From: a virus
Reading direction: 5' to 3' (one strand)
Virus record (IMG/VR): IMGVR_UViG_3300009550_000009
Length of the DNA: 64,000 bases
The stretch's first letter is position 1. Every line of letters starts with the position of its first letter. The notes beneath the pieces were generated by a model that was not told where the DNA came from, did not search any database, and saw only the letters and a list, made by a program, of their open reading frames with translations. The translations under genes were made by a program, and so were the position numbers. Below are positions 8,960-31,157 of this stretch, in pieces.

Positions 8960-8967
8960 ATAATCAT

Positions 8968-9975
8968 ATGGAAAAACCCTCACTCGATACGGCAAAAGCA
9001 GGTGCAATGCGTTTCAATACGGATAGCAGCCAGATGGAGATTTATGATGGGAATCAGTGGACAGGAATATTAGCAACATCACCAAATCAACAAACTGGTG
9101 GAACTCGTGGGATATGGGCTGGGGGAGGCCCCTCTGCAACTGATAGAATTGATTTTGTCAATGTAGACACCACTGGAGATGCAATTGATTTTGGTAATTT
9201 GCTTGGCAATGAAAATTATACAAGAGGATATGGAAATCGAACACGAGGATTATGGGCTCAATCTGTATCCCCTGCAACTGACCAAATAGAATTTATAACA
9301 ATCGCACAACAAGGAAATTCACAAGATTTTGGAAATTTAACTCAATCTTCTCAATCTGGTTGTCATACAGGAGATAGCACAAGGTGTGTTTTTTTTGAAG
9401 GTATAAACCCAACAACTAATGTAATATCATATGTTACTATAGCATCAACAGGAAATGCTGTTGATTTTGGTGATATGTTGCAAGGGGTAAGACACACATG
9501 TGCAGTTCAATCACCTACAAGGGGTATAGTTCCCGGTGGGTGGACTAATCAACCTAATCATAATACTAACATAATTCAATATATCACTACTTCAACGTTG
9601 GGTAATGCATCAGACTTTGGTGATGTTACTATATCAGAATCTTTAAGAGGTCATGCAGCTGGGTCTAATGCAGTAAGAGGAGTTTATGGTGGTGGAATAC
9701 GATATCCGAGTGGTGTGCAAACTGGATTAGAATTTATCACGTTGGCAACTTTAGGTAATGGAACAACATTTGGTGATTTAGCTTATTCTGGTAGACAGGA
9801 AGGTGGTGGTTGTGCCTCTGGCACACGAGCAGTATTTGGGGGTGCATATGCTCCAAGTGCATTAAATACGATGAATTACGTGCAGATAATGACCACAGGT
9901 AACGCATTTGATTTTGGTGATTTGACTATCGCAAGAGGAACAGGAGCTCTTTCAAACGGTCATGGAGGTTTATAA
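8968..9975 (+). CDS. DFGD-repeat propeller protein, class B
   Basis: GAMRFNTDSSQMEIYDGNQW, then repeats. Confidence 0.85.
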   Translation: MEKPSLDTAKAGAMRFNTDSSQMEIYDGNQWTGILATSPNQQTGGTRGIWAGGGPSATDRIDFVNVDTTGDAIDFGNLLGNENYTRGYGNRTRGLWAQSVSPATDQIEFITIAQQGNSQDFGNLTQSSQSGCHTGDSTRCVFFEGINPTTNVISYVTIASTGNAVDFGDMLQGVRHTCAVQSPTRGIVPGGWTNQPNHNTNIIQYITTSTLGNASDFGDVTISESLRGHAAGSNAVRGVYGGGIRYPSGVQTGLEFITLATLGNGTTFGDLAYSGRQEGGGCASGTRAVFGGAYAPSALNTMNYVQIMTTGNAFDFGDLTIARGTGALSNGHGGL

Positions 9976-11012
9976 TGTCTGAATTTAGAGTCAACTCAAT
10001 TACAAATCAAGACGGAAGTGCAGGGCCTCAGGTATGTGGTGTCTCGACATTTAGTGGTAAGTCTGGTGTTCAGATACCAAGTGGGCCAACAGATTTCCGT
10101 AGACAAGATGGTGGTGGAAGAGGAAGAGGAGTGTTTGGTGGAGGTTATAATCCTACAATTAATAACGTGTTGAATTTCGTAGAGATTGCAACCACAGGAA
10201 ATGCAACTGATTTTGGTGATTTAAGTTTATCAAGAAAATTTATTGCTTCATCAGGTGATTCAACTCGTGGTTTATTCATGGGTGGTGAAACACCTACAGC
10301 ACAATCTGTCATTGATTATGTCACTATATCATCAGGTGGTGGTGCGAATGATTTTGGAGATTTAACAGAAGCAAGAGATTTTGGTGCAGCATGTAATTCA
10401 AATGTTCGTGGAATTTATGGTGGTGGAGACGGAACAAGTCAACCATACTTAACTAAAATAGATTCTGTTATCATACAATCCACCGGTAAAGCAAATAAGT
10501 TTGGTGACTTATCACTAGCAAGATTAGGTTTAGGTGCTGGTTCAAGTCCAACAAGAGCTGTATTTGGTGGAGGAACAGGAGGATCACCTTTAAATAACTT
10601 GTTGTTAATTGATTTTATAGAAATTGAAACTGGTGGAACTGCTGTAAAATTTGGAGAATTATCTGTAGGTAGACATTACGTTTCTGGCATATCAAATTCA
10701 ACTCGTGCATTATTTGCTGGTGGAGTTACACCTACCACAGTGAATACAATTGATTTTATAACGATTGCAACCACAGGAAATGCAACTGACTTTGGTGATA
10801 TGACAGTTGCAGCAAGAGGTTTAATGGAGGGAAGTGCAACAACTTCAACTCGTGGTTTATTAATATCTGGTAAACATGATAGTGGATATTATAATGTAAT
10901 TAACTTTGTCACTTTTTCAACAGCAGGAGATGCAACTGATTTTGGAGATACAACAGGACTTGTTAGTTATGGTGGAGCAATATCTGATACGAATGGAGGA
11001 TTAGCACAATGA
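9975..11012 (+). CDS. DFGD-repeat propeller protein, class A
   Basis: MSEFRVNSIT...GP...PSGPT..GRGRG, then repeats. Confidence 0.85.
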   Translation: MSEFRVNSITNQDGSAGPQVCGVSTFSGKSGVQIPSGPTDFRRQDGGGRGRGVFGGGYNPTINNVLNFVEIATTGNATDFGDLSLSRKFIASSGDSTRGLFMGGETPTAQSVIDYVTISSGGGANDFGDLTEARDFGAACNSNVRGIYGGGDGTSQPYLTKIDSVIIQSTGKANKFGDLSLARLGLGAGSSPTRAVFGGGTGGSPLNNLLLIDFIEIETGGTAVKFGELSVGRHYVSGISNSTRALFAGGVTPTTVNTIDFITIATTGNATDFGDMTVAARGLMEGSATTSTRGLLISGKHDSGYYNVINFVTFSTAGDATDFGDTTGLVSYGGAISDTNGGLAQ

Positions 11013-12022
11013 CGGAACAAAGACCATTACAACCAACTCCCGTAGGAGCATTACGATTTAATTCTGATAGTGCAAATTTAGAATATTTTGATGGGAATGA
11101 ATATGTAAATATCACAACCGACTCACCTGAACAAAATACTGGTGGAACTCGTGGATTATTCGCTGGTGGTTACAAAGTTCCGGGCACTAGCAATGAAATA
11201 GATTTTATAAACGTTGATACGACAGGAAACGCAACAGACTTTGGAAATCTATCTGCCGAAAGAAGAGGTGTTGCTGGCCTTGCATCTAGAACTCGTGGAT
11301 TATTTGCTGGTGGCCGATCTCCTGATGTTAATACAATTGAATTCGTTACAATCGCATCAACAGGTGACGTAACTAATTTTGGTGATTTAACAATAACATC
11401 ACATCACGGAACAGGCCTGTCAGATTCAACTCGTGGAATCATAACTGCAATGGAAAATCCAGGCTGGCCTAGCAGTAACAGTAATCAAATAGATTATGTT
11501 ACAATTGCATCAACAGGAAATGCAAATGATTTTGGTGATTTATATTTTGGCACAAGAGAATGTGGTGGATGTGCATCACCCACTCGTGGTGTTGTTTTTT
11601 CAGGAACACCTAGTGGATCAAATGTCATTCAATATTTTACAATCTCAACACAGGGTAATTCGGCAGACTTTGGTGATTTAACCACTGTTGGTCAAAGAGG
11701 TAAAGGTGGTAGTAATGCAGTAAGAGGATTATTCAATATAGGTTTAACACCAAGCGTTAGTAATATAGTTGATTTTATAACTATTGCAACGTTGGGTAAT
11801 GCAAAAGATTTTGGTGATTTAACAGAAGCAAGAGGTAATGCATGTGCAACGGCATCTTCCACTCGTTTTGTTGTTGCAGGTGGTGGAGCTCCATCGGTAG
11901 TTGATACAATTGATTATGCTCAGATAATGACAACAGGTAATTTTATTAATTTTGGAGAACTTGTTGGAGCTGATAGAAGTCAACTAGGTGCTTGTTCTAA
12001 CGGTCATGGAGGTTTAGGATAA
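11009..12022 (+). CDS. DFGD-repeat propeller protein, class B
   Basis: GALRFNSDSANLEYFDG, then repeats; ATGA overlap. Confidence 0.85.
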   Translation: MTEQRPLQPTPVGALRFNSDSANLEYFDGNEYVNITTDSPEQNTGGTRGLFAGGYKVPGTSNEIDFINVDTTGNATDFGNLSAERRGVAGLASRTRGLFAGGRSPDVNTIEFVTIASTGDVTNFGDLTITSHHGTGLSDSTRGIITAMENPGWPSSNSNQIDYVTIASTGNANDFGDLYFGTRECGGCASPTRGVVFSGTPSGSNVIQYFTISTQGNSADFGDLTTVGQRGKGGSNAVRGLFNIGLTPSVSNIVDFITIATLGNAKDFGDLTEARGNACATASSTRFVVAGGGAPSVVDTIDYAQIMTTGNFINFGELVGADRSQLGACSNGHGGLG

Positions 12023-13041
12023 TGTCAGAACTTAGAATTAACAACATTACAGACACCGCAGGGTCAAGTGGGCCAATTATTGCTGGTGTGTCAACAGTTA
12101 CATCAACATCACACATGGTCATGCCAAGTGGCCCAACAGAAATGCGTGGTGGAAGAGGAAGAGGGGTATTTTCAGGTGGATCAAATCCAGTAAGTAAAAC
12201 AATGGATTTGATTGAAATTGCCACCACTGGAAATGGAACATTTTTTGGTGACATTATCGCTACTAGATGGGGTTTAGGTGGTCTTGCATCATCAACTCGT
12301 GGTGTATTTGCAGGTGGATATTATAATTCACCAGCTTCCTTCTTTACAAATATTGAATACATAACGATGTCCTCAAGCGGGGGGACAAATGACTTTGGAG
12401 ATCTCTCTCAAGGAAACTATAGGCCAGGTTGTTGCAATTCTCCAACTCGTGGTCTTGTGGGTGGTGGATTTGTTCCACCTAGTTTTGCTCAAATAAACAA
12501 CATTGAATTTATAACGATTGCGTCAACAGGCGACTCCTCTGATTTTGGTGATTTATCAACAATTTTAGCAAATAATGGATCTTGTTCATCACCTACTCGT
12601 GGAATATTTGCTGGTGGTTATAATCCATCACTTACTGCACAAATAGATTTTGTCACGATTGATACAAAAGGAAATGGACAAGATTTTGGTAATTTAACAC
12701 AAGCAAGAAAAGAAGCTTATGGGTGTTCAAATACAACTCGTGGATTGTTTAATGGTGGTGGTTATCCGGGAGGAACATCAACTACAATTGATTTTATTAC
12801 GATCGCTTCTTTTGGTGACGCAATAGATTTTGGTGATTTATCAGCAGCTAAATCATCTGTTGGAGCTGTTGCATCATCAACTCGTGCGGTTATTGGTGGG
12901 GGTGCAGCACCCGGTGCGATTAATGTCATGGAGTTTGTTACCATAGCGACAACAGGAAATGTAACAGACTTTGGTGATCTTTTGACTGCAAGAAGAGATA
13001 TTGGCGGTGCTTCAGATAGTAATGGTGGACTTGGAGACTAA
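12022..13041 (+). CDS. DFGD-repeat propeller protein, class A
   Basis: MSELRINNIT...PSGPT..GRGRG, then repeats. Confidence 0.85.
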   Translation: MSELRINNITDTAGSSGPIIAGVSTVTSTSHMVMPSGPTEMRGGRGRGVFSGGSNPVSKTMDLIEIATTGNGTFFGDIIATRWGLGGLASSTRGVFAGGYYNSPASFFTNIEYITMSSSGGTNDFGDLSQGNYRPGCCNSPTRGLVGGGFVPPSFAQINNIEFITIASTGDSSDFGDLSTILANNGSCSSPTRGIFAGGYNPSLTAQIDFVTIDTKGNGQDFGNLTQARKEAYGCSNTTRGLFNGGGYPGGTSTTIDFITIASFGDAIDFGDLSAAKSSVGAVASSTRAVIGGGAAPGAINVMEFVTIATTGNVTDFGDLLTARRDIGGASDSNGGLGD

Positions 13042-13049
13042 ATATTAAT

Positions 13050-14135
13050 ATGTCAGACTTTAAAATAAACAGTATTGCAACGAAACAAGGTCAGCACGGG
13101 CCGGTAATTGCTGGTGTCTCGACAATCAACTCCACTGGTTGTATGAAGATACCAAGTGGGCCAACTTATTATCGTGGTAATCGGGGTAGAGGTATATTTG
13201 CAAGTGGGCATGAACCTAACTCAGTTAAAAATATAGATTTTATCAATATCGCATCAACAGGAAATGCAACGGCATGGGGTGAAGTTCTTGGTAATGGTAT
13301 GGCACTTGCAGGTGGTGCATCCAATAATGTTCGTGGTGTCTATACGGGTGGTTTCGAGGGATCTCCAACCAATAATAGAATAAACACAATACAAGCACTT
13401 AATATTCCCACAAATGGAGACATATTTGACTTTGGTGATCTGACATATACCTCTCAACAAATGAGTGGTGTTGGTAATCAGACTCGTGGTGTCTATGCAA
13501 ACGGATATGCATATCCACTTGCACCATCAACAGATGCATTAAATATGACATATACCATGATTGAGTTTATGTCAAGTGCAAATAAAACAGATTTTGGTGA
13601 TATTATTGCTAACGCAGCATGTAGAGACTTAGCAACAGTTGAAACTGAGATTCGAGGATATTTTGCCGGTGGAGAGGGAACTGGTCAAGTTCCGGGAACT
13701 CATAACAAAAACATAACAATCAAAGGATTTGCAAATGGAAGCGAATCACTTAATTTTGGTGAATTATCCGTGCAAGCAAAACGAGGGGCTGGAGTTGGAA
13801 GTCATACCAGAGGAGTTTTTATTTGCGGTGGTATTGCAGACTCACCTGAAGCATTTTCAAATACAATTGAATTTATTACTCTTACAACATCAGGTGAGGC
13901 AACTGATTTTGGTGATGCGACAAGTAATACTGGTGCGATTAATAACAATAGTGCAAGTAATACAATTCGAGGTGTTTATCATAATCCAAGAACAACAGAT
14001 GGTGGAGCAGAAAAAAATATTCTTGAATTTATCACAATAGCGACCACAGGAAATGCGACTGATTTTGGTGATTTAAACTATTCATCTCGTGATGGATGTG
14101 GATTATCTGACTCTCATGGAGGATTACCATTATGA
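13050..14135 (+). CDS. DFGD-repeat propeller protein, class A (divergent)
   Basis: MSDFKINSI...PSGPT..RGRG, then more divergent repeats. Confidence 0.85.
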   Translation: MSDFKINSIATKQGQHGPVIAGVSTINSTGCMKIPSGPTYYRGNRGRGIFASGHEPNSVKNIDFINIASTGNATAWGEVLGNGMALAGGASNNVRGVYTGGFEGSPTNNRINTIQALNIPTNGDIFDFGDLTYTSQQMSGVGNQTRGVYANGYAYPLAPSTDALNMTYTMIEFMSSANKTDFGDIIANAACRDLATVETEIRGYFAGGEGTGQVPGTHNKNITIKGFANGSESLNFGELSVQAKRGAGVGSHTRGVFICGGIADSPEAFSNTIEFITLTTSGEATDFGDATSNTGAINNNSASNTIRGVYHNPRTTDGGAEKNILEFITIATTGNATDFGDLNYSSRDGCGLSDSHGGLPL

Positions 14136-15187
14136 AGGAATATCAAGTTATTGGAAACGCAGCCTCTGGTTCAATCAGATTTAACACAGATTCGAGTAAG
14201 TTAGAGATATACAATGGCGAGCAGTGGTGGGAGATAGATGCAACATCACCAGAGTTACAAACTGGTGGAACTCGTGGAATATTCATGGGTGGTTATCAGC
14301 CTGGTGGTGGTGATAAAGATGATATAGAATTTATAAATGTAGATACAACAGGAAATGCAACTGATTTTGGTAATTTAACAACTGAAAGAAGAGGAACTGG
14401 TGGAGCAGTTGGAAGTCGAACTCGTGCTGTAATGATAGGTGGAAGAGATTCACCCACCAATGAATGTGTAATTGATTTCGTGACGATTGCATCAACAGGA
14501 AATGCAACAGATTTTGGTGACGTAACAAATGGAGTGGCAAATAGTGGTCAGGGTGGAAATGCAGTAAGAGGAGTTGCTTACTCTGGATCTCGTAATAATC
14601 CTAGCCCAGCAATTACAAATACAATCGATTTTATAACAATCGCACAACAAGGTAATGCAGTTGATTTTGGTGATGCTGTAACTGGGGCTATAACTCAAAC
14701 TGGAGGTCTTAATTCACCAACTCGTGGATTATTTGCTGGTGGATATACTCCAAGTGAAACAAATGCTATATCATATATTAATTTTATGACTACAGGGAAT
14801 GCATCAGATTTTGGAGATTTGACTCGTTCTAAAGCAAGAAGGCCTGGTGGTGGTAGTAATGCAGTTCGTGGAATAATTGCTGGTGGTAATCATTATGATA
14901 GTGGTGAAGAAGGTCAGGATACTATTGAATTTATTACACTGGCAACATTGGGAAATGCATCAGACTTTGGTGATTTATTAAATACTGATACAGAAAGTAT
15001 GGCAGGTTGTTCTTCACCTACAAGAGCAGTATTTTTCTCTTCTCCAATATCACCCGGCACTCAGACAAATACATTATCTTATGTTCAAATTATGACAACT
15101 GGAAATGCGATTGATTTTGGTGATTCCACTACGAATAATAGATGGGGTAAGGGTGGAACATCAAATGGTCATGGAGGTCTTGGATAG
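14132..15187 (+). CDS. DFGD-repeat propeller protein, class B
   Basis: GSIRFNTDSSKLEIYNGEQW, then repeats. Confidence 0.85.
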   Translation: MKEYQVIGNAASGSIRFNTDSSKLEIYNGEQWWEIDATSPELQTGGTRGIFMGGYQPGGGDKDDIEFINVDTTGNATDFGNLTTERRGTGGAVGSRTRAVMIGGRDSPTNECVIDFVTIASTGNATDFGDVTNGVANSGQGGNAVRGVAYSGSRNNPSPAITNTIDFITIAQQGNAVDFGDAVTGAITQTGGLNSPTRGLFAGGYTPSETNAISYINFMTTGNASDFGDLTRSKARRPGGGSNAVRGIIAGGNHYDSGEEGQDTIEFITLATLGNASDFGDLLNTDTESMAGCSSPTRAVFFSSPISPGTQTNTLSYVQIMTTGNAIDFGDSTTNNRWGKGGTSNGHGGLG

Positions 15188-17575: not shown

Positions 17576-17620
17576 TGTGTTAATATACACTTATTGATAC
17601 CTGTAAAGTGTTTTTATAGT

Positions 17621-17728
17621 ATGAAACTAACTGGATCTGAAAAACTCGTCTTCATAATATCTTTTATGATGATGATGAACTGGGGTGTTCGTTTAGCACA
17701 ATCGTTTTTTAATTATGCTTTATTTTAG
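17621..17728 (+). CDS. 35-aa hydrophobic peptide, possibly leaderless
   Basis: MKLTGSEKLVFIISFMMMMNWGVRLAQSFFNYALF; ATG directly follows the repeat core. Confidence 0.5.
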   Translation: MKLTGSEKLVFIISFMMMMNWGVRLAQSFFNYALF

Positions 17729-18146
17729 TCACTCTGGATATGCTTACTCTAAAAAAAGATGTGAGAGCATTGTCAAATGGTTTGTTGAAAGATACTTACC
17801 AAATTATAAACTTGCAATTCATGTTGACCACAAAGGATTAGCAAGAGAGCATGTTGTAGGTTGGTGTTGGAACACCGATAGTAACTCAAGACCTCGTGAT
17901 TTTGAGATTGAGATAGATAATAGACAATGTGCAAAAAGTTACACAGAAACCCTCTTACATGAACTGTGGCACGTTAGACAACATGTCATGGGTGATTTAA
18001 AGAAAACAAGTAAAAAGAAGTTTTGGAAGGGCATAGACCACACTAACAAGTGGGATGATGATTATAACAGCCCATGGGAGTGGCAAGCAAGAGAAATGGA
18101 AACAGTTCTTTATAATCAGTATCATCGTATTTTCCCCTATAATTAA
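17715..18146 (+). CDS. HExxH zinc metallopeptidase-like protein
   Basis: TLLHELWHVRQ and downstream PWEWQA. Confidence 0.7.
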   Translation: MLYFSHSGYAYSKKRCESIVKWFVERYLPNYKLAIHVDHKGLAREHVVGWCWNTDSNSRPRDFEIEIDNRQCAKSYTETLLHELWHVRQHVMGDLKKTSKKKFWKGIDHTNKWDDDYNSPWEWQAREMETVLYNQYHRIFPYN

Positions 18147-18163
18147 ATTAAGGAGGTCATTTA

Positions 18164-18361
18164 ATGAAAGATCAAGGCAAAATTAAAGTTGATTCACCAT
18201 TTGAAAAATGGGACAGAGCAAAGAGTTTATTACTAGAATCTTTGTATAAACCTGATGTCGCATTGCGTTCTTGTTCACACAATCAACAATGTTTTCACGA
18301 AATGATTTCACTACGAGATCAAACTATTGAGTATGTTAGAAGTCTACCTAATCCACATTAG
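18164..18361 (+). CDS. hypothetical protein
   Basis: AAGGAGG RBS upstream. Confidence 0.75.
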   Translation: MKDQGKIKVDSPFEKWDRAKSLLLESLYKPDVALRSCSHNQQCFHEMISLRDQTIEYVRSLPNPH

Positions 18362-18496
18362 GTATTAACTCGTAGGCATAAATTTTTATTACGGATTAAT
18401 TGAAATTTGTTCATTTCCTCACTAAATAGTGATAGAATTAGGGAAGACAAGATGCACTAAAACTTCTTTGCTATTACTATTCTTGGAGAGAAAACC

Positions 18497-18670
18497 ATGC
18501 ACAATCTCGTATCTTACAATCAACTGGCTGGATGGAATAATATAGATAAGTCCCTTGACAGTTCAGTAGAACAAACGGAGATGGTTAACGACTATTTTAA
18601 TTGCCTTGTTGAATGTGATCTCAATGATGCTAATTCAAAACGATACTGTCGAAGTATTTTAACAAAATAA
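18497..18670 (+). CDS. 57-aa Cys-containing protein
   Basis: MHNLVSYNQLAGW...DYFNCLVECD...YCRSILTK; GGAG RBS; terminator downstream; below ORF-track cutoff. Confidence 0.75.
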   Translation: MHNLVSYNQLAGWNNIDKSLDSSVEQTEMVNDYFNCLVECDLNDANSKRYCRSILTK

Positions 18671-18676
18671 ACACAG

Positions 18677-18698
18677 ATCCCCGCAAGGGGATTTTTTA
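18677..18698 (+). terminator. intrinsic terminator
   Basis: ATCCCC-GCAA-GGGGAT followed by a T run. Confidence 0.85.
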
Positions 18699-18738
18699 AT
18701 GTTAGGAAACATAAATAAATGTAAATACAACTTAATAT

Positions 18739-18888
18739 ATGAATGATAAAAAGGCCGCTAAGACAATTATAAAAAGAGCAAGAGAAAATCCCAATTTGTA
18801 TTCAAAAGACGAGGTTAGTTATGCAAAAATGATTAAGAAACGAATTAAACAAAGAAAACTTCTTGACAAAAAAGAAGAAGTAGTCTAA
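18739..18888 (+). CDS. 49-aa basic protein
   Basis: MNDKKAAKTIIKRAREN...; ATAAATA at 18711. Confidence 0.65.
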   Translation: MNDKKAAKTIIKRARENPNLYSKDEVSYAKMIKKRIKQRKLLDKKEEVV

Positions 18889-18891
18889 AAT
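18863..18891 (+). promoter_or_regulatory. sigma70-type promoter
   Basis: TTGACA-N17-TAAAAT. Confidence 0.7.
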
Positions 18892-18914
18892 ATTATCATT
18901 ACAACACATTTTAG

Positions 18915-19217
18915 ATGTCTGATTATAAGGATTACGTTTTTAATCAATTAAATGAAATAATTGATCAAATAATTGAGGAAAAAGAAATTAAATCAAAAGA
19001 AACTTATGATGTCTTTTGTGATTCTTTGCAAAAAAATATTAATTATCATCGAGAGTGTATTGACAAGTGCAAGCAATTACTTTTATTAATGAACGCAGGA
19101 GAACCAAGAGTTACTTCTTATACTGGTGATGACCAATCCCCCGAAGCTAGACATGCGTGGGATGATTTTTGGAATAGTTTTACCCCCCCAAATTCAAAGG
19201 AGAAAGAAGATGATTAA
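18915..19217 (+). CDS. hypothetical protein
   Basis: 100-aa ORF after the promoter. Confidence 0.7.
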   Translation: MSDYKDYVFNQLNEIIDQIIEEKEIKSKETYDVFCDSLQKNINYHRECIDKCKQLLLLMNAGEPRVTSYTGDDQSPEARHAWDDFWNSFTPPNSKEKEDD

Positions 19218-19425
19218 TCTTGACGCTAGGTATCACGATTATTTACATAGTAAAAAAAAGATTTGTGTTGATGGAGTGGAGGAAAGTGTCAAGGCTTACG
19301 GATATAACTGTGACGGAAGTGATATTATAGGTTATTATATAACTACTAACTGCCATAAATTATATTATGATTTGCAAGAAAATTTTCTTCGCAAAGAGTT
19401 AGTATCTGATACCTCTAAAGTGTAA
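19210..19425 (+). CDS. hypothetical protein (start revised to MINLD)
   Basis: GGAG upstream of ATG 19210; C-terminus SDTSKV is encoded by a repeat copy. Confidence 0.7.
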   Translation: MINLDARYHDYLHSKKKICVDGVEESVKAYGYNCDGSDIIGYYITTNCHKLYYDLQENFLRKELVSDTSKV

Positions 19426-19427
19426 CT

Positions 19428-19568
19428 ATGTTAGTTGATTTAAAAAAACAAGAGATTGTGAAAATCTATCAAATTCTTAAAACTAAAAAAGAGGATGATG
19501 TGGTAGTTGATTACCTACATGATAGATTTAAAAAGTTAACCAAAATTTGCACTTGCGAGGAAACCTGA
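19428..19568 (+). CDS. 46-aa hypothetical protein
   Basis: MLVDLKKQEIVK...CTCEET; TGATG coupling to the next ORF. Confidence 0.6.
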   Translation: MLVDLKKQEIVKIYQILKTKKEDDVVVDYLHDRFKKLTKICTCEET

Positions 19569-19720
19569 TGACTGAAAAAGACCCTAAAACTGGATTGTGG
19601 AGACATCCCCAACCCATAAATGATACTGAGAAAATGATTGATGATTTTATTGCTGAGTGTGAAAAACAAGCAGCAAAATTAGAGGTCACAGTTGATTATT
19701 ACATTGCGGAATTTACTTAA
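19568..19720 (+). CDS. 50-aa hypothetical protein
   Basis: MTEKDPKTGLW...AAKLEVTVDYYIAEFT. Confidence 0.65.
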   Translation: MTEKDPKTGLWRHPQPINDTEKMIDDFIAECEKQAAKLEVTVDYYIAEFT

Positions 19721-19725
19721 CTATT

Positions 19726-19887
19726 ATGGAAAAACTTTACAGAATCGAAGAACTCACAACAGAGGGGTGGACACTCTTAGAGGATAAATCTCAAAAACTC
19801 ACAAAAGAAAAATGTGATGAATTACTGAGAAAATATCTAGATGGTGGTGCAAATCCGAATAGGTTACGAGCAGTCAATGACGTATGA
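19726..19887 (+). CDS. 53-aa hypothetical protein
   Basis: MEKLYRIEELTTEGW...GANPNRLRAVNDV. Confidence 0.7.
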   Translation: MEKLYRIEELTTEGWTLLEDKSQKLTKEKCDELLRKYLDGGANPNRLRAVNDV

Positions 19888-20227
19888 ACCAAAAGTAAAT
19901 GACTATGTTAAGTGGACAACAGCACTAGGCATGGTGCATGAGGGGTGGGTTTATTTTAAAGCACCCCCATCAGAGCATAAAAAGGGGTGGAGAAAACCAG
20001 AAAGGTATATCTCAATAGAAATTGCGACAAAACCAAGACGACAATGTGATATATCTACGTTTTTACATAAACGTATTCATGTATGTCTTTGTTGCTATGA
20101 GAATAATTGGCATGAATTAACCTATATTAGGAGAAGAGTTAGTAAACAAGATGATTCTGACCCTGATGAAGCAATAAGTTATGGTGCATATAAATCTCAA
20201 CAATACAGACCGCTTGATATTCAGTAA
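19877..20227 (+). CDS. hypothetical protein (start revised to MTYEP)
   Basis: In-frame ATG avoids a long overlap with 19726. Confidence 0.7.
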   Translation: MTYEPKVNDYVKWTTALGMVHEGWVYFKAPPSEHKKGWRKPERYISIEIATKPRRQCDISTFLHKRIHVCLCCYENNWHELTYIRRRVSKQDDSDPDEAISYGAYKSQQYRPLDIQ

Positions 20228-20268
20228 TTGATACCATTAAAATGTTTTAGTAATGAATTATTTGAATT

Positions 20269-20886
20269 ATGGCAGAAGTCCAACTACATGGAAATAACTT
20301 TGAAGATCTCAAAATTAGAGAACTCACAGGTTTAAGTAAAAAAGATTACGACTCTTTAAAAGGTAAGGGTGGATATACTTCCGCAATGGATTTGATTGAA
20401 GGTCTGATTGTTGATAAAAATTACAGTATCAAAACTGCGAAGGGAAACAAAGTTGATTGTGGAGATATTCTTAGAAGAATGAAAGAAGATAATTATACAA
20501 TTATTGTAGGTCAATGGTCACAAGATGGATTGCAGAAAATTTTTCATACTGAATACACATTTAATATAAAATCAGAGGATAAGGAAAAATTATGGGGTAA
20601 TATGAATTATGATGATGTTGTTTCATTCGATAAGTTTATTAAATCAATACCACATGGTAAAGAAGGACAGCAGACAACAAAAGAGGAGAGAGAAATTAGG
20701 AAGAATAAAATATCATGTGATAAAGCCCTCATGTCTATTCACCCAAAAGTAGATAGTAAAAATCAAAGAAGAGTTCAATGCTCATTTAAAATATCTGATT
20801 TGATAAAGTCAGGTATTGATTATCAAGCAAAAGCAATTAAATTTTCAATAGAGTCACCTTCTCGAACATTTAATAACAAAAACTGA
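20269..20886 (+). CDS. putative restriction-endonuclease-like nuclease
   Basis: HG..FE helix, then D...SIK, resembling a variant PD-(D/E)xK site; stop codon is the repeat TGA. Confidence 0.45.
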   Translation: MAEVQLHGNNFEDLKIRELTGLSKKDYDSLKGKGGYTSAMDLIEGLIVDKNYSIKTAKGNKVDCGDILRRMKEDNYTIIVGQWSQDGLQKIFHTEYTFNIKSEDKEKLWGNMNYDDVVSFDKFIKSIPHGKEGQQTTKEEREIRKNKISCDKALMSIHPKVDSKNQRRVQCSFKISDLIKSGIDYQAKAIKFSIESPSRTFNNKN

Positions 20887-20909
20887 TACCTCTAAAGTGT
20901 TTCAGTAGT

Positions 20910-21002
20910 GCGAGAACAAACCAACTTAAGACTTTCAAGGTAGCGGATACCCAAAGAAAAACGCTTTTAAATCGAACTTAAGCAGTTGAGTTTTGTTCTC
21001 GC
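20910..21002 (+). ncRNA. structured RNA candidate (long rod hairpin; sRNA or 5' leader)
   Basis: GCGAGAACAAA 20910-20920 pairs perfectly with TTTGTTCTCGC 20992-21002; inner CAACT/AGTTG, TAAG/CTTA, GGTA-GCGGA-TACC. Confidence 0.6.
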
Positions 21003-21028
21003 CCACCCAATAAAATCGCACAAAAATT

Positions 21029-21208
21029 ATGACATCATCTGAAGTATTACTTGAATTAAGAGAACTTAAGGAAGCATGGAAAAAACAAAATTTCGTGTTC
21101 AACGAAGGTCAACAGATAAGATATGATAATCTTCTTCAAAAACGTAGAGGTTTTGTCAAATCATGGTTTGAAAATGGTCTTGTCTATAAAAAAACCGCAT
21201 CTAAATAG
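21029..21208 (+). CDS. 59-aa hypothetical protein
   Basis: MTSSEVLLELRELKEAWKKQNF...; below ORF-track cutoff. Confidence 0.7.
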   Translation: MTSSEVLLELRELKEAWKKQNFVFNEGQQIRYDNLLQKRRGFVKSWFENGLVYKKTASK

Positions 21209-21229
21209 TATATAAGACATTTAGAGAAG

Positions 21230-21781
21230 ATGAAAACATTTCGGGAGTTTACAACAGAAGTTTATGACCCAGAGGTTCAAGGTCGTTCACAGATCCGCAA
21301 GATGGGTCAAGGTGGTCGTATTGGACAGGAGAGGAAAAAAACTGCTCCCGAAAAAAGGAGAATGAAGGCAGCTGGAGGTGGGAAGATGGTTCCAGCTAAA
21401 GATTATAAAGATCGCAAAGATATTGGTAAGGACAGAGCAAGATCAGAGAGAGAGCAACAACCAACTCAAACAAGAGGATCTGCAGCCCTTACACCTAGAG
21501 AACAACAAAAAAAAGCAAGAGCCGAGAGAATGGCAAGTAAATCGGGTAAGAAAACACCTAGAGAACTTGCGAAAGCGGCACAAAAGTTGTTACAAAAGAA
21601 AAAAGAAAAAAAAGTAGATCCAAAATATAAACCAGCAAAAGCAAGTGGATTAACGAGAGCAGAGAGACAGCAGATAAACAGAGCTGGTAAGAGATTAGTA
21701 AAAGATATGCAATCAGGTAAAGATAGACCAAGATCAGCATATGAGCCCGGAATGAGTGTTGCAATGAGAGGAAAAGAGTAG
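21230..21781 (+). CDS. basic protein with T4 capsid-targeting-like N-terminus (putative internal head protein)
   Basis: MKTFREFTTE; K/R-rich; CTAAATA late promoter at 21201. Confidence 0.6.
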   Translation: MKTFREFTTEVYDPEVQGRSQIRKMGQGGRIGQERKKTAPEKRRMKAAGGGKMVPAKDYKDRKDIGKDRARSEREQQPTQTRGSAALTPREQQKKARAERMASKSGKKTPRELAKAAQKLLQKKKEKKVDPKYKPAKASGLTRAERQQINRAGKRLVKDMQSGKDRPRSAYEPGMSVAMRGKE

Positions 21782-21882
21782 ATTTAGTATCATAAACTGA
21801 TACCACCAAATTGTTACTATTGTATATCACCATGGCAAATCTATTGTCATGTGGTATAATATTATTATATTATTGATTATTG

Positions 21883-23073
21883 ATGATTGAATTAAGACCA
21901 CATCAGAAGAGTGCTTTAGATGCTATGAGTGCATCAGATAAAGGACAGATCATAGTTCCTACTGGTGGTGGTAAAACTATGTGCATGATTGAAGATGTCA
22001 AGAGACAATTCAACAGTTCAGTAAATAAAACTGTTGTAGTTGTTGCACCTCGTATATTGCTTGCAAATCAATTATGTTCAGAGTTTTTAGAGCAGAATCT
22101 CGATAGTAACTATAATGTTGGTGTAGATGTGATTCATGTTCATAGTGGAGAGACACATTTTTACAGCACAACTAAGACTGATAAGATAAAGAAGTGGTAT
22201 CACAATAGCACCAAACATATTATTATGTTTACTACATACCATTCACTTCATAGAGTGCAAGAGAGTGGTATTCATGTAGATACAATATACTTTGATGAGT
22301 CACATAATGCAGTTCAAAAGAACTTCATTGAAGCAGTTGAGTATTTCTCAATGTATGCAGAGAGATCATACTTCTTTACTGCTACACCAAAACATTCACT
22401 TACACCTTTTAAAGTTGGAATGAATGATGTTGACATTTTTGGTCAAGTAATTTGCAATGTTCCTGCACCTAAATTAGTGAAGCAAGGTTATATATTACCA
22501 CCAAAAGTTGTTATTAACAAGATTGATTTACAAGATGATAGTAGATTTTCATACGAGCAAGATTGCGATTGTGTAATAGAAACTATTGATAATCAAGATG
22601 TGGATAAGATTTTAATTTGTGCAAGATCAACAAAACAAATTGTCAATTTAGTTACTCATACATCATTCATTCTTGATTTATATTCTCGTGGATATTCATG
22701 GATGATGATTACATCTAAAACTGGTGCAGTTATAGATGGTAAAAAAGTAAACAGAGAGGAGTTTTTCAATACGTTAAATACTTGGGGTAAAGATTCTGAT
22801 AAAAGATTTGTTGTATTACATCATAGTATATTATCTGAAGGTATCAATGTAAAAGGATTAGAAGCTGCTATGTTTCTAAGGAATATGGATTATATTGGTA
22901 TATCTCAAACTATTGGTAGAGTGATACGCAAAGGGGACGAGAGTAAAACATTTGGATTGATTTGTGTTCCAGTATATGATAAAGTTGGTATCTCTACTTC
23001 TCGTAGAGTTGAAGCAGTTGTCGATACTGTATTCAATCAGGGTCAGCCCGCAATTAGTGTAGTTAGGAATTAA
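21883..23073 (+). CDS. superfamily 2 (DExH) helicase
   Basis: PTGGGKT, DESH, TATP, LSEGINV and QTIGRVIR motifs. Confidence 0.9.
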   Translation: MIELRPHQKSALDAMSASDKGQIIVPTGGGKTMCMIEDVKRQFNSSVNKTVVVVAPRILLANQLCSEFLEQNLDSNYNVGVDVIHVHSGETHFYSTTKTDKIKKWYHNSTKHIIMFTTYHSLHRVQESGIHVDTIYFDESHNAVQKNFIEAVEYFSMYAERSYFFTATPKHSLTPFKVGMNDVDIFGQVICNVPAPKLVKQGYILPPKVVINKIDLQDDSRFSYEQDCDCVIETIDNQDVDKILICARSTKQIVNLVTHTSFILDLYSRGYSWMMITSKTGAVIDGKKVNREEFFNTLNTWGKDSDKRFVVLHHSILSEGINVKGLEAAMFLRNMDYIGISQTIGRVIRKGDESKTFGLICVPVYDKVGISTSRRVEAVVDTVFNQGQPAISVVRN

Positions 23074-23220
23074 ATGAAATACATTTTCAAAATAGACGAT
23101 TTTCAATTAACCGAAGACGAATATGATCTTTGGTCAGATAATCAATTATCAGTTCAAGAAATTTTGGACGATAGAATATCAAAAGATGAAATTAATATCT
23201 ATATTGATGTTAAGAACTGA
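23074..23220 (+). CDS. 48-aa acidic protein
   Basis: MKYIFKIDDF...IDVKN*; stop is the repeat TGA. Confidence 0.6.
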   Translation: MKYIFKIDDFQLTEDEYDLWSDNQLSVQEILDDRISKDEINIYIDVKN

Positions 23221-23257
23221 TACCTCTAAAATGTTTTAACAATGAATAAGCATTATT

Positions 23258-23473
23258 ATGAAAGTAAAAGAATTACTAAACATTTTGAGTGATGCCAAAC
23301 CTGATGATAACATCACTTTCTATTACTTGGAAAAAAACACTCTCGCTAATTCTACATTTGAATCATTCTTTGATTGCAACTATGTAGATGTAAATGGAGT
23401 TGTTGATTGGGAACTAACAGTTCAAAACACTATGGAATACTTAGAGGAGAACTCAGACAATGATGACAGTTAA
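23258..23473 (+). CDS. hypothetical cassette protein
   Basis: Follows repeat 23218. Confidence 0.75.
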   Translation: MKVKELLNILSDAKPDDNITFYYLEKNTLANSTFESFFDCNYVDVNGVVDWELTVQNTMEYLEENSDNDDS

Positions 23474-23621
23474 CATAAACGATTTTGTTACAGATGATGA
23501 ACTTTCACTTCTATGGAAGATTGCAGAGCGTATAATAAAGGAGGGGCATGTATATAATGACCCAGACTATAAAATCCAATTAAATCTTATTACTGAAACA
23601 TGGAGGCCTGATGAAAATTGA
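23460..23621 (+). CDS. 53-aa hypothetical protein
   Basis: MMTVNINDFVTDDELSLLWKIAE...; GAGGAG upstream. Confidence 0.6.
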   Translation: MMTVNINDFVTDDELSLLWKIAERIIKEGHVYNDPDYKIQLNLITETWRPDEN

Positions 23622-23817
23622 ACTTAACGAAAAAGAACAACAGTATCTTATTGATTCTATGATGTTCTATTCAACATTCATGCAGTATTTTAAAAATGAT
23701 AATCGAGGGTCATATTCTCGATTAATAAAACAGTATCAATACTGGTATGATAAAGACGATAGAAAAGAATGTCAACAAACATTTGAAAAAGTTTTGAGAG
23801 CAGATAAACAAAACTGA
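23611..23817 (+). CDS. hypothetical protein
   Basis: GGAGG RBS; stop is the repeat TGA. Confidence 0.75.
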   Translation: MKIELNEKEQQYLIDSMMFYSTFMQYFKNDNRGSYSRLIKQYQYWYDKDDRKECQQTFEKVLRADKQN

Positions 23818-23854
23818 TACCTCTAAATTGTTCCTACAGTAAGAGTTAATTATT

Positions 23855-24130
23855 ATGACAAACAGAAACAGCGATGCTCTCAATGAGCAAATACTAGAAA
23901 ATCTAACACCCGAACAACTACAAGAACTTAAAGAGTTGTATGTTGAGAGACTTGTTGATAATATGTCAACAAAAGATTTAGTTCGTTATGTCTTTGACGA
24001 TATGACACAATATGTTGATAAGCAATCACCTGTTGAGTTTTTTGATGATGCTTACAGTTACTTTGATGACTACTTTGATGAGATAGTCGAGGAAATCAAA
24101 GGCGGTCAATCTGTAAACAATTTAAACTAG
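23855..24130 (+). CDS. hypothetical cassette protein
   Basis: Follows repeat 23815. Confidence 0.8.
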   Translation: MTNRNSDALNEQILENLTPEQLQELKELYVERLVDNMSTKDLVRYVFDDMTQYVDKQSPVEFFDDAYSYFDDYFDEIVEEIKGGQSVNNLN

Positions 24131-24139
24131 GAGATCAAA

Positions 24140-24436
24140 ATGAATGAAGAACTTTACACAATTCAAATAACTCGTAGAGAGTTGGGATTAATCAAACATT
24201 ACTCTCATTTATTATTTGCAAATATTGATGATGATGTTTCATCTGATGGTGGTTCATGCACAGGCAGTTTTCCGATAGAAAAAGATTGGTTCGGTAAAGA
24301 TGCAATCAGAGGTCTTTATCGTAAAACAAAGAATATTGCAGATACTCATTATAATGATGATGAGGAATTGCAATTAGATAAAAGTTTAAGATACTCTACC
24401 AACATGAAATCTACATGGCCTTGGTTACAAAACTGA
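24140..24436 (+). CDS. hypothetical protein
   Basis: AGGAG RBS; stop is the repeat TGA. Confidence 0.75.
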   Translation: MNEELYTIQITRRELGLIKHYSHLLFANIDDDVSSDGGSCTGSFPIEKDWFGKDAIRGLYRKTKNIADTHYNDDEELQLDKSLRYSTNMKSTWPWLQN

Positions 24437-24474
24437 TACCTCTAAAATGTTCTTATAGTATAACACAAAACAAC

Positions 24475-24507
24475 ATGATTACAGCATTTTTTACAGGAGT
24501 ATTCTAA
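24475..24507 (+). pseudogene. truncated copy (MITAFFTGVF*) of gene 26142
   Basis: 24430-24500 matches 26097-26167 at 70/71 nt. Confidence 0.8.
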
Positions 24508-24791
24508 TGACAATGACCGCAAAAGAGTTTATGCAAGAAGTTTACGAAATTGCATTTGGACATGAAGCATACTACAGAGGATTTTTTCCAGAGGAAGTTG
24601 TCGAGAGACTACAAGATTTTTCAGATGGATCAAATCCAATTCTTATTGAAGATGCTTATAATGAGATAGAAGAATTAAAAACTTCACTTACAGAACTAAG
24701 TGATGCAGACCTATTAAATTCCAGACAAGCTCTTATTAATCAAACAAATAGAGTTATGGAAGCATTAAATGAAATAGGAACTGATGAATAA
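24507..24791 (+). CDS. hypothetical protein
   Basis: 94 aa; TAATG-coupled to the remnant. Confidence 0.75.
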   Translation: MTMTAKEFMQEVYEIAFGHEAYYRGFFPEEVVERLQDFSDGSNPILIEDAYNEIEELKTSLTELSDADLLNSRQALINQTNRVMEALNEIGTDE

Positions 24792-24839
24792 TAATATTAT
24801 TGATACCTCTAAATTGTTCCTTTATTAGATTATGAAATT

Positions 24840-25757
24840 ATGAAAAACACACACCTTGAACACCCCGAAGATTCCATTCTAACTGGTGATCTTACCGCAC
24901 TTGATTGGATGTCTGAAAAGAACAGTCATATATCAGTCAAGATTGATGGAAGTCCAGCTATCGTATGGGGACGTAACCCTGCAACTGGAAATCAATTTGT
25001 TGGAACTAAATCTGTATTCAACAAAAAGTTAATTAAGATATGCGAATCAATCGAGGATATTGATAAGTTTTATAGTGGTGATTTGCGTGACATATTAACA
25101 AATTGTTTTGTTAATTTACCTATCACAAAAAACATTTATCAAGGTGATTTCATCGGGTTTGGTGGTAATTATTCTTACACACCTAATACAATTACATATA
25201 AGTTTGACCGTATTATATCACAAAGAATAATAATTGCACCACATACTGTTTATGAATCACAAAAAGATTTGCGTGATGCAGTTGCAAACCCTCTTTTAAA
25301 TAATCTATCATCTACAACAAATGTTTTATTTGTATCACCTGATTGTGGTATAGTTAATGACAATGAGTTAATTAAATTACAGGTTAATTTTGCTAAACAA
25401 ATGGCAACATTATGTGAGTTCCCAACAGAAAACAAAGTAATTGCACGTTTAAAAAAACAGATTAATACATGTATTCGTGAGGGAATTGAATTAGATGAAT
25501 TAACACAAGATGCACTTGCTAATGATAACGAAGTTGACTTAAATGTTATTAGATTGTGGAAATTAGTGGAAGCAATTAAGATTCAATTGTTTACATATAT
25601 TCATGTAGATGAGAGTATTGAATGTGAAATAGAGAACCATAATGTTGACCATGAAGGTTATGTAATGACCAACAAATTCGGTTCATTTAAGATTGTAGAT
25701 CGAGAGGTATTTTCATTCTTAAATTTCAATCTTTCAAAAAATCGTGATACAAACTGA
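24840..25757 (+). CDS. putative ligase-superfamily nucleotidyltransferase
   Basis: KIDG, YQGDF, HEGYV and FKIV match ligase motifs I, III, IV, V in order; stop is the repeat TGA. Confidence 0.5.
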   Translation: MKNTHLEHPEDSILTGDLTALDWMSEKNSHISVKIDGSPAIVWGRNPATGNQFVGTKSVFNKKLIKICESIEDIDKFYSGDLRDILTNCFVNLPITKNIYQGDFIGFGGNYSYTPNTITYKFDRIISQRIIIAPHTVYESQKDLRDAVANPLLNNLSSTTNVLFVSPDCGIVNDNELIKLQVNFAKQMATLCEFPTENKVIARLKKQINTCIREGIELDELTQDALANDNEVDLNVIRLWKLVEAIKIQLFTYIHVDESIECEIENHNVDHEGYVMTNKFGSFKIVDREVFSFLNFNLSKNRDTN

Positions 25758-25806
25758 TACCTCTAAAATGTTCCTATAGTAAGAATTGAATTATTTTTTC
25801 AAAACA

Positions 25807-26061
25807 ATGACTGACGAAATTTTATCACTAGAGTTTGGAAGAACATTTTGGTTAGATGAAGATGGAGAGTTACGTTCTGCACCAACTTTCAAAAATGGTG
25901 AAACCGATTATGAAAAGTGGGATTATGTATCAGAGTGGCAAGATCTTGAAGGTATCAATCTTGATGCTTTACTCAACATTCATAAAAATTTAGTTATTAA
26001 AAACTATATTGAGACCACTGAAAAGTTTAATTTTAGATACCAAGTTTTAAAAGGAGCATAA
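25807..26061 (+). CDS. hypothetical cassette protein (start revised to ATG)
   Basis: Follows repeat 25755. Confidence 0.75.
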   Translation: MTDEILSLEFGRTFWLDEDGELRSAPTFKNGETDYEKWDYVSEWQDLEGINLDALLNIHKNLVIKNYIETTEKFNFRYQVLKGA

Positions 26062-26065
26062 CATC

Positions 26066-26125
26066 ATGTCATTAAATACACCACATAACGTAACACAAAC
26101 TGATACCTCTAAAATGTCCTTATAG
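26066..26125 (+). pseudogene. 5' remnant of a paralog of gene 26938, running into a repeat
   Basis: MSLNTPHNVTQT vs MTINTPFNVTLT (29/38 nt identical); AAGGAG RBS. Confidence 0.6.
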
Positions 26126-26141
26126 TATAACACAAAACAAC

Positions 26142-26375
26142 ATGATTACAGCATTTTTTACAGGAGTTGTCGTAGCAATTCCAACTTCACTTATTACAAT
26201 GAAGTTACTAAACAGTTCACTTTTTATCAGTAATGAAGAATTAAGGGAAGCAAACGCTAAAATTAGTCTCATTATTAATAACTTAGATGACTTCAGAGAA
26301 GAGAGACTTGCCGATAAAATGGAGAGACTTGGCATAACTGATAAACTTGATAAGAGACTTGAAATAAAAAATTAA
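26142..26375 (+). CDS. small protein with N-terminal hydrophobic helix
   Basis: Follows repeat 26101. Confidence 0.75.
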   Translation: MITAFFTGVVVAIPTSLITMKLLNSSLFISNEELREANAKISLIINNLDDFREERLADKMERLGITDKLDKRLEIKN

Positions 26376-26427
26376 TACATCAACTGATACCTTTAAACTG
26401 TTCCTATAGTATAAGATCAAATTAATT

Positions 26428-26667
26428 ATGAAAAAATCATTTATTGTTGAAGATGTAACAGCAAACTTAGACAAGATCACTTGTTTAACTGATGAAATAA
26501 TAGAGGGTATTAATTTTAGATGCCTTAATGCTATTGGTGTATGGCATACAGAAGGTAATGATGCAGAAGGAGATTTATGGGATAAAGTTGAAGCATATAT
26601 TGGTGTTCCTTTAGGTGGTTTAACATACTGTAAAAATCAACCACACAAACTTACTTCTTTTAAGTAA
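26428..26667 (+). CDS. hypothetical cassette protein
   Basis: Follows repeat 26385. Confidence 0.8.
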   Translation: MKKSFIVEDVTANLDKITCLTDEIIEGINFRCLNAIGVWHTEGNDAEGDLWDKVEAYIGVPLGGLTYCKNQPHKLTSFK

Positions 26668-26710
26668 GTGATACCTCTAAATTGTCCCTTATATGTAAGA
26701 CTTATTAAAA

Positions 26711-27183: not shown

Positions 27184-27233
27184 TAATAATTGATACCTTT
27201 AAAATGTTCCTATAGTATAAGATCAAATTAATT

Positions 27234-27476: not shown

Positions 27477-27528
27477 TACTAACTGATACCTCTAAAATGT
27501 TCCTATAGTATAAGCAAACATCAAAATT

Positions 27529-27717: not shown

Positions 27718-27770
27718 TTGACTCAAACTGATACCTCTAAACTGTTCCTATAGTATAAGCAATCAAAAAA

Positions 27771-27947: not shown

Positions 27948-28135
27948 AAAATGACCAAGAAATTCTAAACAATGTTGAAATTCTAAGCAAATATCATATT
28001 GATAGATTCCAACATTTATTAGACAATGATCGAAAAGATGACGCAATTTCAATCATGCAAGAATATGTAAGTAAAGGAGAAGTTGAAGATGACGATTATC
28101 AATGGTTATATGTAAATTATCTTTTTAAAAACTGA
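27944..28135 (+). CDS. hypothetical protein
   Basis: Stop is the repeat TGA. Confidence 0.75.
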   Translation: MKNDQEILNNVEILSKYHIDRFQHLLDNDRKDDAISIMQEYVSKGEVEDDDYQWLYVNYLFKN

Positions 28136-28176
28136 TACCTCTAAAATGTTCCTATAGTAAGCAATCCAATTAAATT

Positions 28177-28377: not shown

Positions 28378-28427
28378 TTCAAACTGATACCTCTAAACTG
28401 TTCCTATAGTATAAGACAAACAAAATT

Positions 28428-28871: not shown

Positions 28872-28924
28872 TCACTAATTGATACCTCTAAAATGTTTCT
28901 ATAGTATAAGATACAATTCACATT

Positions 28925-29134: not shown

Positions 29135-29195
29135 TTAACTCAAACTGATACCTTTAAAATGTTCCTATAGTATAAGCAATCAATCAATTCACATC

Positions 29196-29528: not shown

Positions 29529-29534
29529 TTAACT

Positions 29535-29572: not shown

Positions 29573-29699
29573 ATTTTCTCTCGTTAGTTATTAATGGGCC
29601 TCCGCAATTCTCTTCCTTACGAGATGCGAAAGCGATTTTTTAATTAACACTAACTGAAACCCCCAAACTGTTATTATTGTATAGGATTATTTTTTTATT

Positions 29700-29804: not shown

Positions 29805-29859
29805 CACTTACTGATACCTGTAAACTGTTACTATAGTATCAGAGACAAAAAACATTATT

Positions 29860-30940: not shown

Positions 30941-31004
30941 TTAGTGTTAGTTTTCCACAGCTGTTATATAACATTATATGAAACCTGTAAAGTGTTCTTA
31001 TAGT

Positions 31005-31157
31005 GTAGGGAGCAGAGATAGTGAAGAGGGAGACGCGAAGGTTAAGGAGGTTTAAAAAACCATTATTCCAAAACTTCGTTAGTGCGCACTTAGTCCCACT
31101 CTTGCAATGCGGAGCTCCGCCTCTAGTTTAAGTGACTAGATGTAAGTATCCCTACCA
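31005..31157 (+). ncRNA. multi-stem structured RNA candidate
   Basis: Closing stem GTAGGGA/TCCCTAC; AAGAG/CTCTT, CGAAG/CTTCG, TCTAGT/ACTAGA; GC-rich, no credible ORF; starts right after repeat 30979. Confidence 0.6.

Follow-up and report, generated by a model that had tools for sequence, protein, structure and literature searches.

A putative second class of early-gene promoter in T4-like cyanomyoviruses, with a predicted start directly after its conserved core

T4-like cyanophages are among the most abundant viruses of the ocean. An early-gene regulatory element is reported, in the abstract of the respective study, for two of them, Syn9 and P-TIM40 (Doron et al. 2016, ISME J 10:1437), and cyanomyoviruses have been described as lacking motA and asiA (PMC2984593). 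In T4-type phages, PeSL and PmSL cassettes are known (Arbiol 2010; Comeau 2014, PMC4122927), a PeSL being a terminator stem-loop followed by either a near-consensus sigma70 promoter or a Mot box with a -10 element (PMC4122927). The element of Syn9, P-TIM40 and P-HM2, here termed class I, is composed of ACAGTT-N6-GTGkCAC, CACTACC, N14, TATAAT, (A/T)TAGT and ATAAgCAA. Copies of the form ACAGTTnnATTA-GTGkCAC-A-N8-CACTACC-N14-TATAAT (L257-L266 in P-TIM40, L004-L012 in Syn9, L267-L276 in P-HM2) have their TATAAT 37 nt, sometimes 38 or 40 nt, after GTGkCAC, and they cluster at 48.9-55 kb in P-TIM40 and at 46-53 kb in Syn9. A generic scan with GTGKCACA-N8-CACTACC returned mostly chance matches, and the class I copies considered here stem from the three isolates and a few contigs. 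The class I transcription start (+1) is itself placed by canonical geometry, which would put the consensus TATAAT 6 bp 5' of the start base.

The window, i.e., the complete stretch of 64,000 nt that was analysed, has a GC content of 31-41%, and all of its ORFs of at least 150 codons except one lie on the + strand. PHROG matches to the baseplate wedge proteins gp6, gp7 and gp8, to head-closure proteins and to the tail sheath stabiliser, together with a gp6 homologue sharing 65% identity with its counterpart in Synechococcus phage S-SM2 and 54% with the one in Prochlorococcus phage P-TIM68, identify it by gene content as a T4-like cyanomyovirus (Kyanoviridae) related to these two isolates. About a dozen tandem ORFs of 335-390 aa stand back to back on the + strand 5' of the early array (121-15187), and the baseplate gene block (36172-58491) includes three giant ORFs of 1571, 2745 and 2530 aa, the last of which corresponds to phrog_358 and has no assigned function.

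A search of the whole window with TGATACCNNNAAANTGT at up to two mismatches gave 28 matches, versus 4.1 expected from shuffles. Twenty-three of them form a single in-register, gap-free family on the + strand (starts 17595 to 30979), which follows the pattern TGAwACC-nnT-AAA-n-TGT-N8-T-R and spans 17595-31004, on the coding strand in all 23 cases (Table 1). Its consensus is aaC TGATACC TCT AAA a TGT TCC TATAGT / ATAAGa, where the slash separates bases 26 and 27 and base 1 is the first T of TGATACC. Thirteen columns are invariant (T1, G2, A3, A5, C6, C7, A11, A12, A13, T15, G16, T17 and T26; 23/23), 21 of the 23 copies have the 5' block without a mismatch, all four bases occur at the fully randomised position 14 (A 10, C 5, G 4, T 4), and base 27 is a purine throughout (A 18, G 5). 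In most copies the ATG of the downstream gene is found at bases 40-53, and in copy 1 at base 27. An earlier note on this DNA had claimed that base 26 is T and the next base a purine in all 23 copies, that an ATG (17621) and two RNA closing stems (20910 and 31005) begin on that register, and that ordinary promoters and late motifs exist separately. Column counts (23/23) and folding bear this out; in copy 1 the ATG opens on base 27, the two stems likewise begin at base 27 of their copies, and sigma70-like sites (18863, 30713 and 31892, + strand) as well as ATAAATA motifs are located apart from the element.

Terminator-like sites are few on the + strand between 16.5 and 33 kb, and none adjoins an element; the window scan found no terminators between the copies, and the element itself forms no conserved hairpin. 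Rfam gave no match for the RNAs that follow copies 4 and 23, for the latter not even at E <= 1. Homologues of the copy 1 peptide occur in S-SM2 (with the ATG likewise at base 27), P-TIM68, L132, L180 and, with a leader, L168. The ATAAATA motif occurs 14 times in the window, versus 33 expected from shuffles, with 13 of the 14 on the + strand; several sites lie 18-40 nt 5' of gene starts (49308, 59127, 61430, 62914, 18711, 31740), and the genes just 3' of several of them include structural ones. These sites look like late promoters, and the motif appears to be avoided elsewhere in the window.

Table 1. Element copies and associated features in the window
Feature	Position	Strand	Remarks
Element copy 1 (TGATACC block, TAAA, TGT, TATAGT)	17595..17620	+	First of the array; preceding non-array gene ends at 17575
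35-codon ORF, ATG = base 27 of copy 1	17621..17728	+	Conserved hydrophobic peptide EKLvFI..SFM..M.WG.R
Element copy 2	19407..19432	+	Pattern match, column counts
Element copy 3	20229..20254	+	Gene ATG = element base 41
Element copy 4	20884..20909	+	Followed by structured RNA
Rod-like RNA, 93 nt	20910..21002	+	11-bp closing stem from element base 27, z = -3.96
Element copy 5	21798..21823	+	5' of helicase gene
Element copy 6	23218..23243	+	Column counts
Element copy 7	23815..23840	+	Column counts
Element copy 8	24434..24459	+	Column counts
Element copy 9	24801..24826	+	5' of DUF6267 gene; ATG at base 40 (base 27 in S-SM2-type phages)
Element copy 10	25755..25780	+	Column counts
Element copy 11	26101..26126	+	Column counts
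Element copy 12	26385..26410	+	Column counts
Element copy 13	26669..26694	+	Column counts
Element copy 14	27191..27216	+	Column counts
Element copy 15	27484..27509	+	Column counts
Element copy 16	27729..27754	+	Column counts
Element copy 17	28133..28158	+	Column counts
Element copy 18	28385..28410	+	Column counts
Element copy 19	28880..28905	+	Column counts
Element copy 20	29146..29171	+	Column counts
Element copy 21, TGAAACC variant	29655..29680	+	Pattern match, column counts
Element copy 22	29812..29837	+	Column counts
Element copy 23, TGAAACC variant	30979..31004	+	Followed by structured RNA
Structured RNA domain, ~150 nt	31005..31155	+	7-bp closing stem from element base 27, z = -1.9
Terminator-like hairpin after RNA domain of copy 23	31439-31455		

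The element is, in our opinion, probably the early-gene promoter of a second class of T4-like cyanomyoviruses (class II), with a start just after the core and a lineage-specific reader. S-SM2, P-TIM68, the window phage and numerous relatives not in culture would belong to class II, where the element has a constant 3' half, TAAAgTGTCCCTATAGT directly followed by RTRAG, and a 5' block of 7 bp that does not change inside a phage but does from one phage to the next. An IMG/VR scan with the full 17-base pattern TGATACCNNTAAANTGT returned mostly single chance matches, and the scan with the shared 3' half TAAANYGTYCCTATAGTRTRAG identified at least 120 contig stretches. Across 185,579 prokaryote genomes the 3' half has a single occurrence, located on a MAG contig of 2.3 kb; the element is therefore phage specific and not the copy of a host promoter, and the idea of a host regulon was rejected on the same grounds. 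In the complete genomes of S-SM2 and P-TIM68 the copies are restricted to a single strand of the early small-gene region, which is syntenic and lies 5' of gp25/gp6; 12 copies were counted in S-SM2 (GGGGTCG CCTAAAGCGTCCCTATAGT, then R), and a variant (AGTTACC TCTAAATTGA..TAtTAAT, then G) occurs 13 times in P-TIM68. The record nearest to the window (G001) carries six copies of the window's element, and Syn9, P-TIM40, P-HM2, P-SSM2 and S-PM2 do not have the class II core. Text searches of the literature, in which Doron et al. (2016) was covered by its abstract, gave no description of class II.

The matches listed comprise 504 copies in viral stretches, of which 446 are unique. Among these matches, 60 contigs have at least four copies, and 375 of their 385 copies differ by at most one mismatch from the 7-mer of their own contig. 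The 60 contigs show 24 dominant block types of the general form N-G-NNN-C-C, with C6 in 24/24 and G2 in 21/24 types. As base 14 is randomised next to a nearly always exact block, the block is, to judge from this pattern, under selection inside a genome, yet it differs between genomes. DUF6267 proteins are 61% identical between contigs sharing a block and 54% identical between contigs with different blocks, one contig pair with 92% identity carries different blocks, and by this comparison the block type is uncoupled from neighbour-gene phylogeny. The early-region proteins of 60 aa and 294 aa in L144 and L182 are 92% and 82% identical to those of the window, and the block there is GGAGCCC, not TGATACC; the block is therefore able to switch between close relatives.

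Among the matches listed, 166 of the 446 unique copies have base 27 as the very first base of their first ORF of at least 30 codons; in about 11 copies this ORF starts at bases 28-40, and in the remainder from base 41 onward, commonly at 41-60. Bases 27-29 read ATG in 170 copies (38%), and 160 of these (94%) maintain an open frame over 30 codons or more, versus 32-46% for the control triplets ATA or GTA at the same place. In about 30 copies the DUF6267 N terminus MKNTH begins at base 27; the window homologue has a 13-nt leader, and the Pfam profile of DUF6267 starts at residue 3 of the window protein. Base 27 thus harbours real start codons and must, therefore, be part of the mRNA. A position weight matrix (PWM) of the 22 nt after the class I TATAAT, applied to the window copies, fits only at base 21 (mean +1.6, and at most -4.6 at every other offset), so that the class I TATAAT falls on bases 15-20 (TGTTCC) and the canonical +1 on base 27. 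The DUF6267 gene of P-TIM40 has the arrangement TATAAT-aaagac-ATG (N6) and is leaderless at the base equivalent to 27. Leader lengths are in agreement, with 15-24 nt for class I and, counted from base 27 as +1, 13-26 nt for the window.

According to this alignment, the start region tATAGT / RTRAGCAa would be homologous to that of the class I (Syn9/P-TIM40-type) early promoter, with YGTYCC at the position of the class I hexamer and a spacer of TAAA plus the 7-bp block N-G-NNN-C-C in place of the class I spacer. The RNA would begin at the purine directly 3' of the core, i.e., at base 27 and possibly at base 25 in some copies, yielding mRNAs that are leaderless (ATG at base 27) or have a leader of 13-26 nt, or else RNAs that open with a stem-loop. 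In the RNAs downstream of the element, the closing stem begins at base 25 (n = 18), base 24 (n = 13), base 26 (n = 11) and base 27 (n = 7); these stems are partly homologous to each other, at least ten look independent, and they are more in line with a 5' end at base 25 or before it than with one at base 27. If the stems mark the 5' end, some transcripts would begin at G25, at the junction of TATA and G, or earlier. Since closing stems often start at bases 24-26, the most likely RNA 5' end is predicted at element base 27 +/- 2, and a rival start at base 22 is retained below. In a family of small genes (L148, L153, L177, L215, L223, L226 and L241), the 5' sequence AGTATGAGCA, which covers element bases 24-33 and contains the start codon, has a complement, TGTTCATGCT, 220-240 nt downstream; the two could pair over a long range inside the mRNA.

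The start codons and the class I alignment both speak for the register of the earlier note, which had put the start at the purine after the core, and its claim of a non-sigma70 geometry agrees with the presence of TGTTCC where a -10 box is expected. The primary sigma factor does not read DNA as an unbroken conserved stretch without -10 and -35 boxes. With the start at base 27, conservation in the element runs unbroken from -26 to +5, with the 7-bp block at -26 to -20; bases 15-20 are TGTTCC or CGTCCC, without an A at -11, no TAnnnT ends 6-8 bp before the start, and no TTGACA-like -35 hexamer lies 16-18 bp 5' of the -10 position. In 357 copies detected by their 5' part only, T23 (99%), A24 (95%), G25 (91%), T26 (99%), R27 (100%) and T28 (91%) are conserved, as are A11 (100%), T15 (94%), T10 (76%), T21 and A22 (79% each), and a conserved upstream hexamer of the -35 kind is missing from these copies. 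The host primary sigma would thus be unable to read class II in its usual -10 mode, and the lack of a -10 box at the expected position implies a lineage-specific reader. No ordinary bacterial promoter could initiate at its own 3' edge, and a start there likewise implies that something other than the usual host sigma-factor read-out recognises the element.

Base-27 start codons in 38% of the copies would fall outside the transcript if the element were an ordinary host sigma70 promoter, with TATAGT (bases 21-26) or TAGTAT (bases 23-28) as -10, CTGATA as a weak -35 and a start at bases 33-36. This applies already to the first copy of the array, which heads a conserved peptide gene with its ATG at base 27 in both S-SM2 and the window, and it contradicts the standard YTGATA-N17-TAGTAT promoter that the earlier note had named as the refuting case. 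The similarity of TATAGT to TATAAT at five of six positions, with T26 as the invariant -7 T, does fit such a promoter, as do the TTGATA-N17-TAGTAT listed by a consensus scan at 17594-17622 and the distance of 13 bp from block to TATAGT, which is close to the 14 bp between CACTACC and TATAAT of class I. However, the 5' arms of at least 15 independent stem-loops, which start at bases 24-27, would be lost, leaders would be only 7-20 nt long, the PWM selects another register, and CTGATA fits the window lineage only, the supposed -35 failing in the sister phages, where GGGGGT or TAGTTA occupies its position. We regard a host sigma70 promoter as quite improbable.

The earlier note had also offered TAAAnT (bases 10-15) as a -10 box, with G16 beginning the discriminator and a start at about base 22. 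Under this model the box would be recognised by a sigma70-family or gp55-like factor, and the genes with ATG at base 27 would have a 5-nt leader. TAAAGT is a respectable -10-like hexamer with well-conserved A11, T15 and T10, T21-A22 forms a pyrimidine-purine step, CTAAA is similar to the core of late promoters, and a start at base 22 would leave an overhang of 2-3 nt before the stems from base 24-25. Comparative evidence has weakened this alternative, which appears unlikely: homology to class I sets the canonical start at base 27, T23, A24, G25, T26 (91-99%) and R27 (100%) are more conserved than T21 and A22 (79%), ATG at base 22 was found in just 2 of the 446 copies among the matches listed, base 15 is C in 7 of the 12 copies of S-SM2, and neither a -35 nor a TG motif lies at a fitting distance. 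As for the late promoter of T4, its core (TATAAATA / ATAAATA) is not matched, and the element has CTAAAnTG. Sigma54-like (TGGCAC) and ECF-like (AAC...CGT) readings were discarded on account of wrong spacing versus the respective consensus sequences.

Finally, the element might act mainly on RNA, by a cut between T26 and R27 of a read-through transcript, or as a seam for the exchange of cassettes of the PeSL kind. The missing terminators between copies, the location of all copies on one strand, the first codons MS(T/N)T that unrelated proteins receive from the element, and the mosaicism expressed by a block type uncoupled from neighbour-gene phylogeny would all be in accordance with this explanation. 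We nevertheless hold it to be improbable as the main role, as the element's start region shows homology to class I elements, in which a consensus TATAAT is placed at the distance of a promoter, each array opens with a copy that heads a conserved gene and has no early promoter upstream of it, and the element forms no conserved hairpin; moreover, a role as a seam is compatible with promoter function. A hairpin or processing signal was also rejected on inspection, the imperfect S-SM2 stem (GGGGTCGC / GCGTCCC) not being kept in the window lineage.

With respect to the reader of the putative class II promoter, the earlier note had postulated a phage-specified factor. The lineage-specific block implies such a factor, but the search yielded neither an extra sigma gene nor a gene for a T7-type polymerase. 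No PF00940 polymerase was found in S-SM2, P-TIM68, P-TIM40 and Syn9 (positive control P-SSP7, E = 2.7e-69); Sigma70_r2 gave one match each in S-SM2 and P-TIM68, an ORF of 167-181 aa taken as gp55, and no sigma gene beyond gp55 was found in these two genomes. A phyletic profile returned 44 S-SM2 ORFs that are common to P-TIM68 and absent from Syn9, P-TIM40 and P-HM2, the large ones among them being enzymes of sugar metabolism and hence discarded as readers. A basic protein of 183 aa (21230) and four small neighbours, all five common to S-SM2, P-TIM68 and the window and absent from Syn9, P-TIM40 and P-HM2, were rejected as well, as they track the block type no better than the control DUF6267. 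The 294-aa protein at 31945, which looks like a glycosyltransferase, was discarded too. It is conceivable, although doubtful, that class II early genes are read by a phage-specified reader matched to the 7-bp address block, i.e., a virion-delivered specificity factor for host polymerase or a polymerase without detectable family, with a T7-like TATA-purine start and leaderless mRNAs.

Two of these early-region proteins have further characteristics. The very basic 183-aa protein (21230-21781), for which Pfam and PHROG gave no match, begins with MKTFREFTTE, which resembles a T4-type capsid-targeting sequence; S-SM2, P-TIM68 and 40 class II stretches also encode this protein. The 294-aa protein (31945-32829; phrog_1574) is located behind a TTGACA-N17-TG-TAAAAT site, is 70-82% conserved across class II lineages, is absent from three class I isolates and is grouped with viral glycosyltransferases in the ESM Atlas.

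The putative class II promoters bear on the question of how T4-like cyanophages activate their first genes without Alt, Mod, MotA and AsiA. They would represent a promoter class that has lost its -10 box, whose predicted start is backed by hundreds of built-in start codons and whose address block varies between phages. Two members, S-SM2 and P-TIM68, are in culture, and the block provides a handle for finding the reader, by covariation or by DNA pull-down. In the annotation of cyanophage metagenomes, the element could mark early genes, leaderless genes and small RNAs.

Among the known systems, T4 middle promoters, which combine a MotA box with sigma appropriation, are similar in that a phage-specific box replaces the -35 and a phage factor is implied. 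They retain the sigma70 -10, however, and MotA is made after infection, whereas our element has no -10 and the genes behind it look early. In the promoters of the T7 group, too, conservation is contiguous up to the start, the 5' part is AT-rich and the middle is lineage-specific; TATA immediately precedes a purine, and the first transcribed bases are conserved. If +1 is placed at base 25, the element agrees at 11 of 18 positions with what we take to be the T7 consensus. The T7-group promoters differ in the PF00940 polymerase, which our search did not find in S-SM2, P-TIM68, P-TIM40 or Syn9, and the specificity block of the element is situated further upstream (-26 to -20). PeSL and PmSL cassettes resemble the element in their many near-identical promoter copies, hyperplastic regions, small unrelated ORFs and phage-group-specific sequence, and a role as recombination seam is likely to be common to both; in contrast to a PeSL, no stem-loop precedes the element and no -10/-35 boxes are found at canonical distance.

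The closest counterpart is the element of Syn9 and P-TIM40, which is likewise repeated on the coding strand before small early genes 5' of the baseplate genes, has no -35 box and shares the homologous start region (A/T)TAGT / ATAAgCAA. GTGkCAC, CACTACC and the TATAAT 37 bp further on are absent from the window copies, which instead have TGTTCC at the TATAAT position, a conserved TAAA spacer and the lineage-specific 7-bp block. Because genomic role and start sequence are common to both, but the features found in the class I isolates are absent, class II is treated here, on the basis of these sequence comparisons, as a sister class of the Syn9/P-TIM40 element and not as a member of it.
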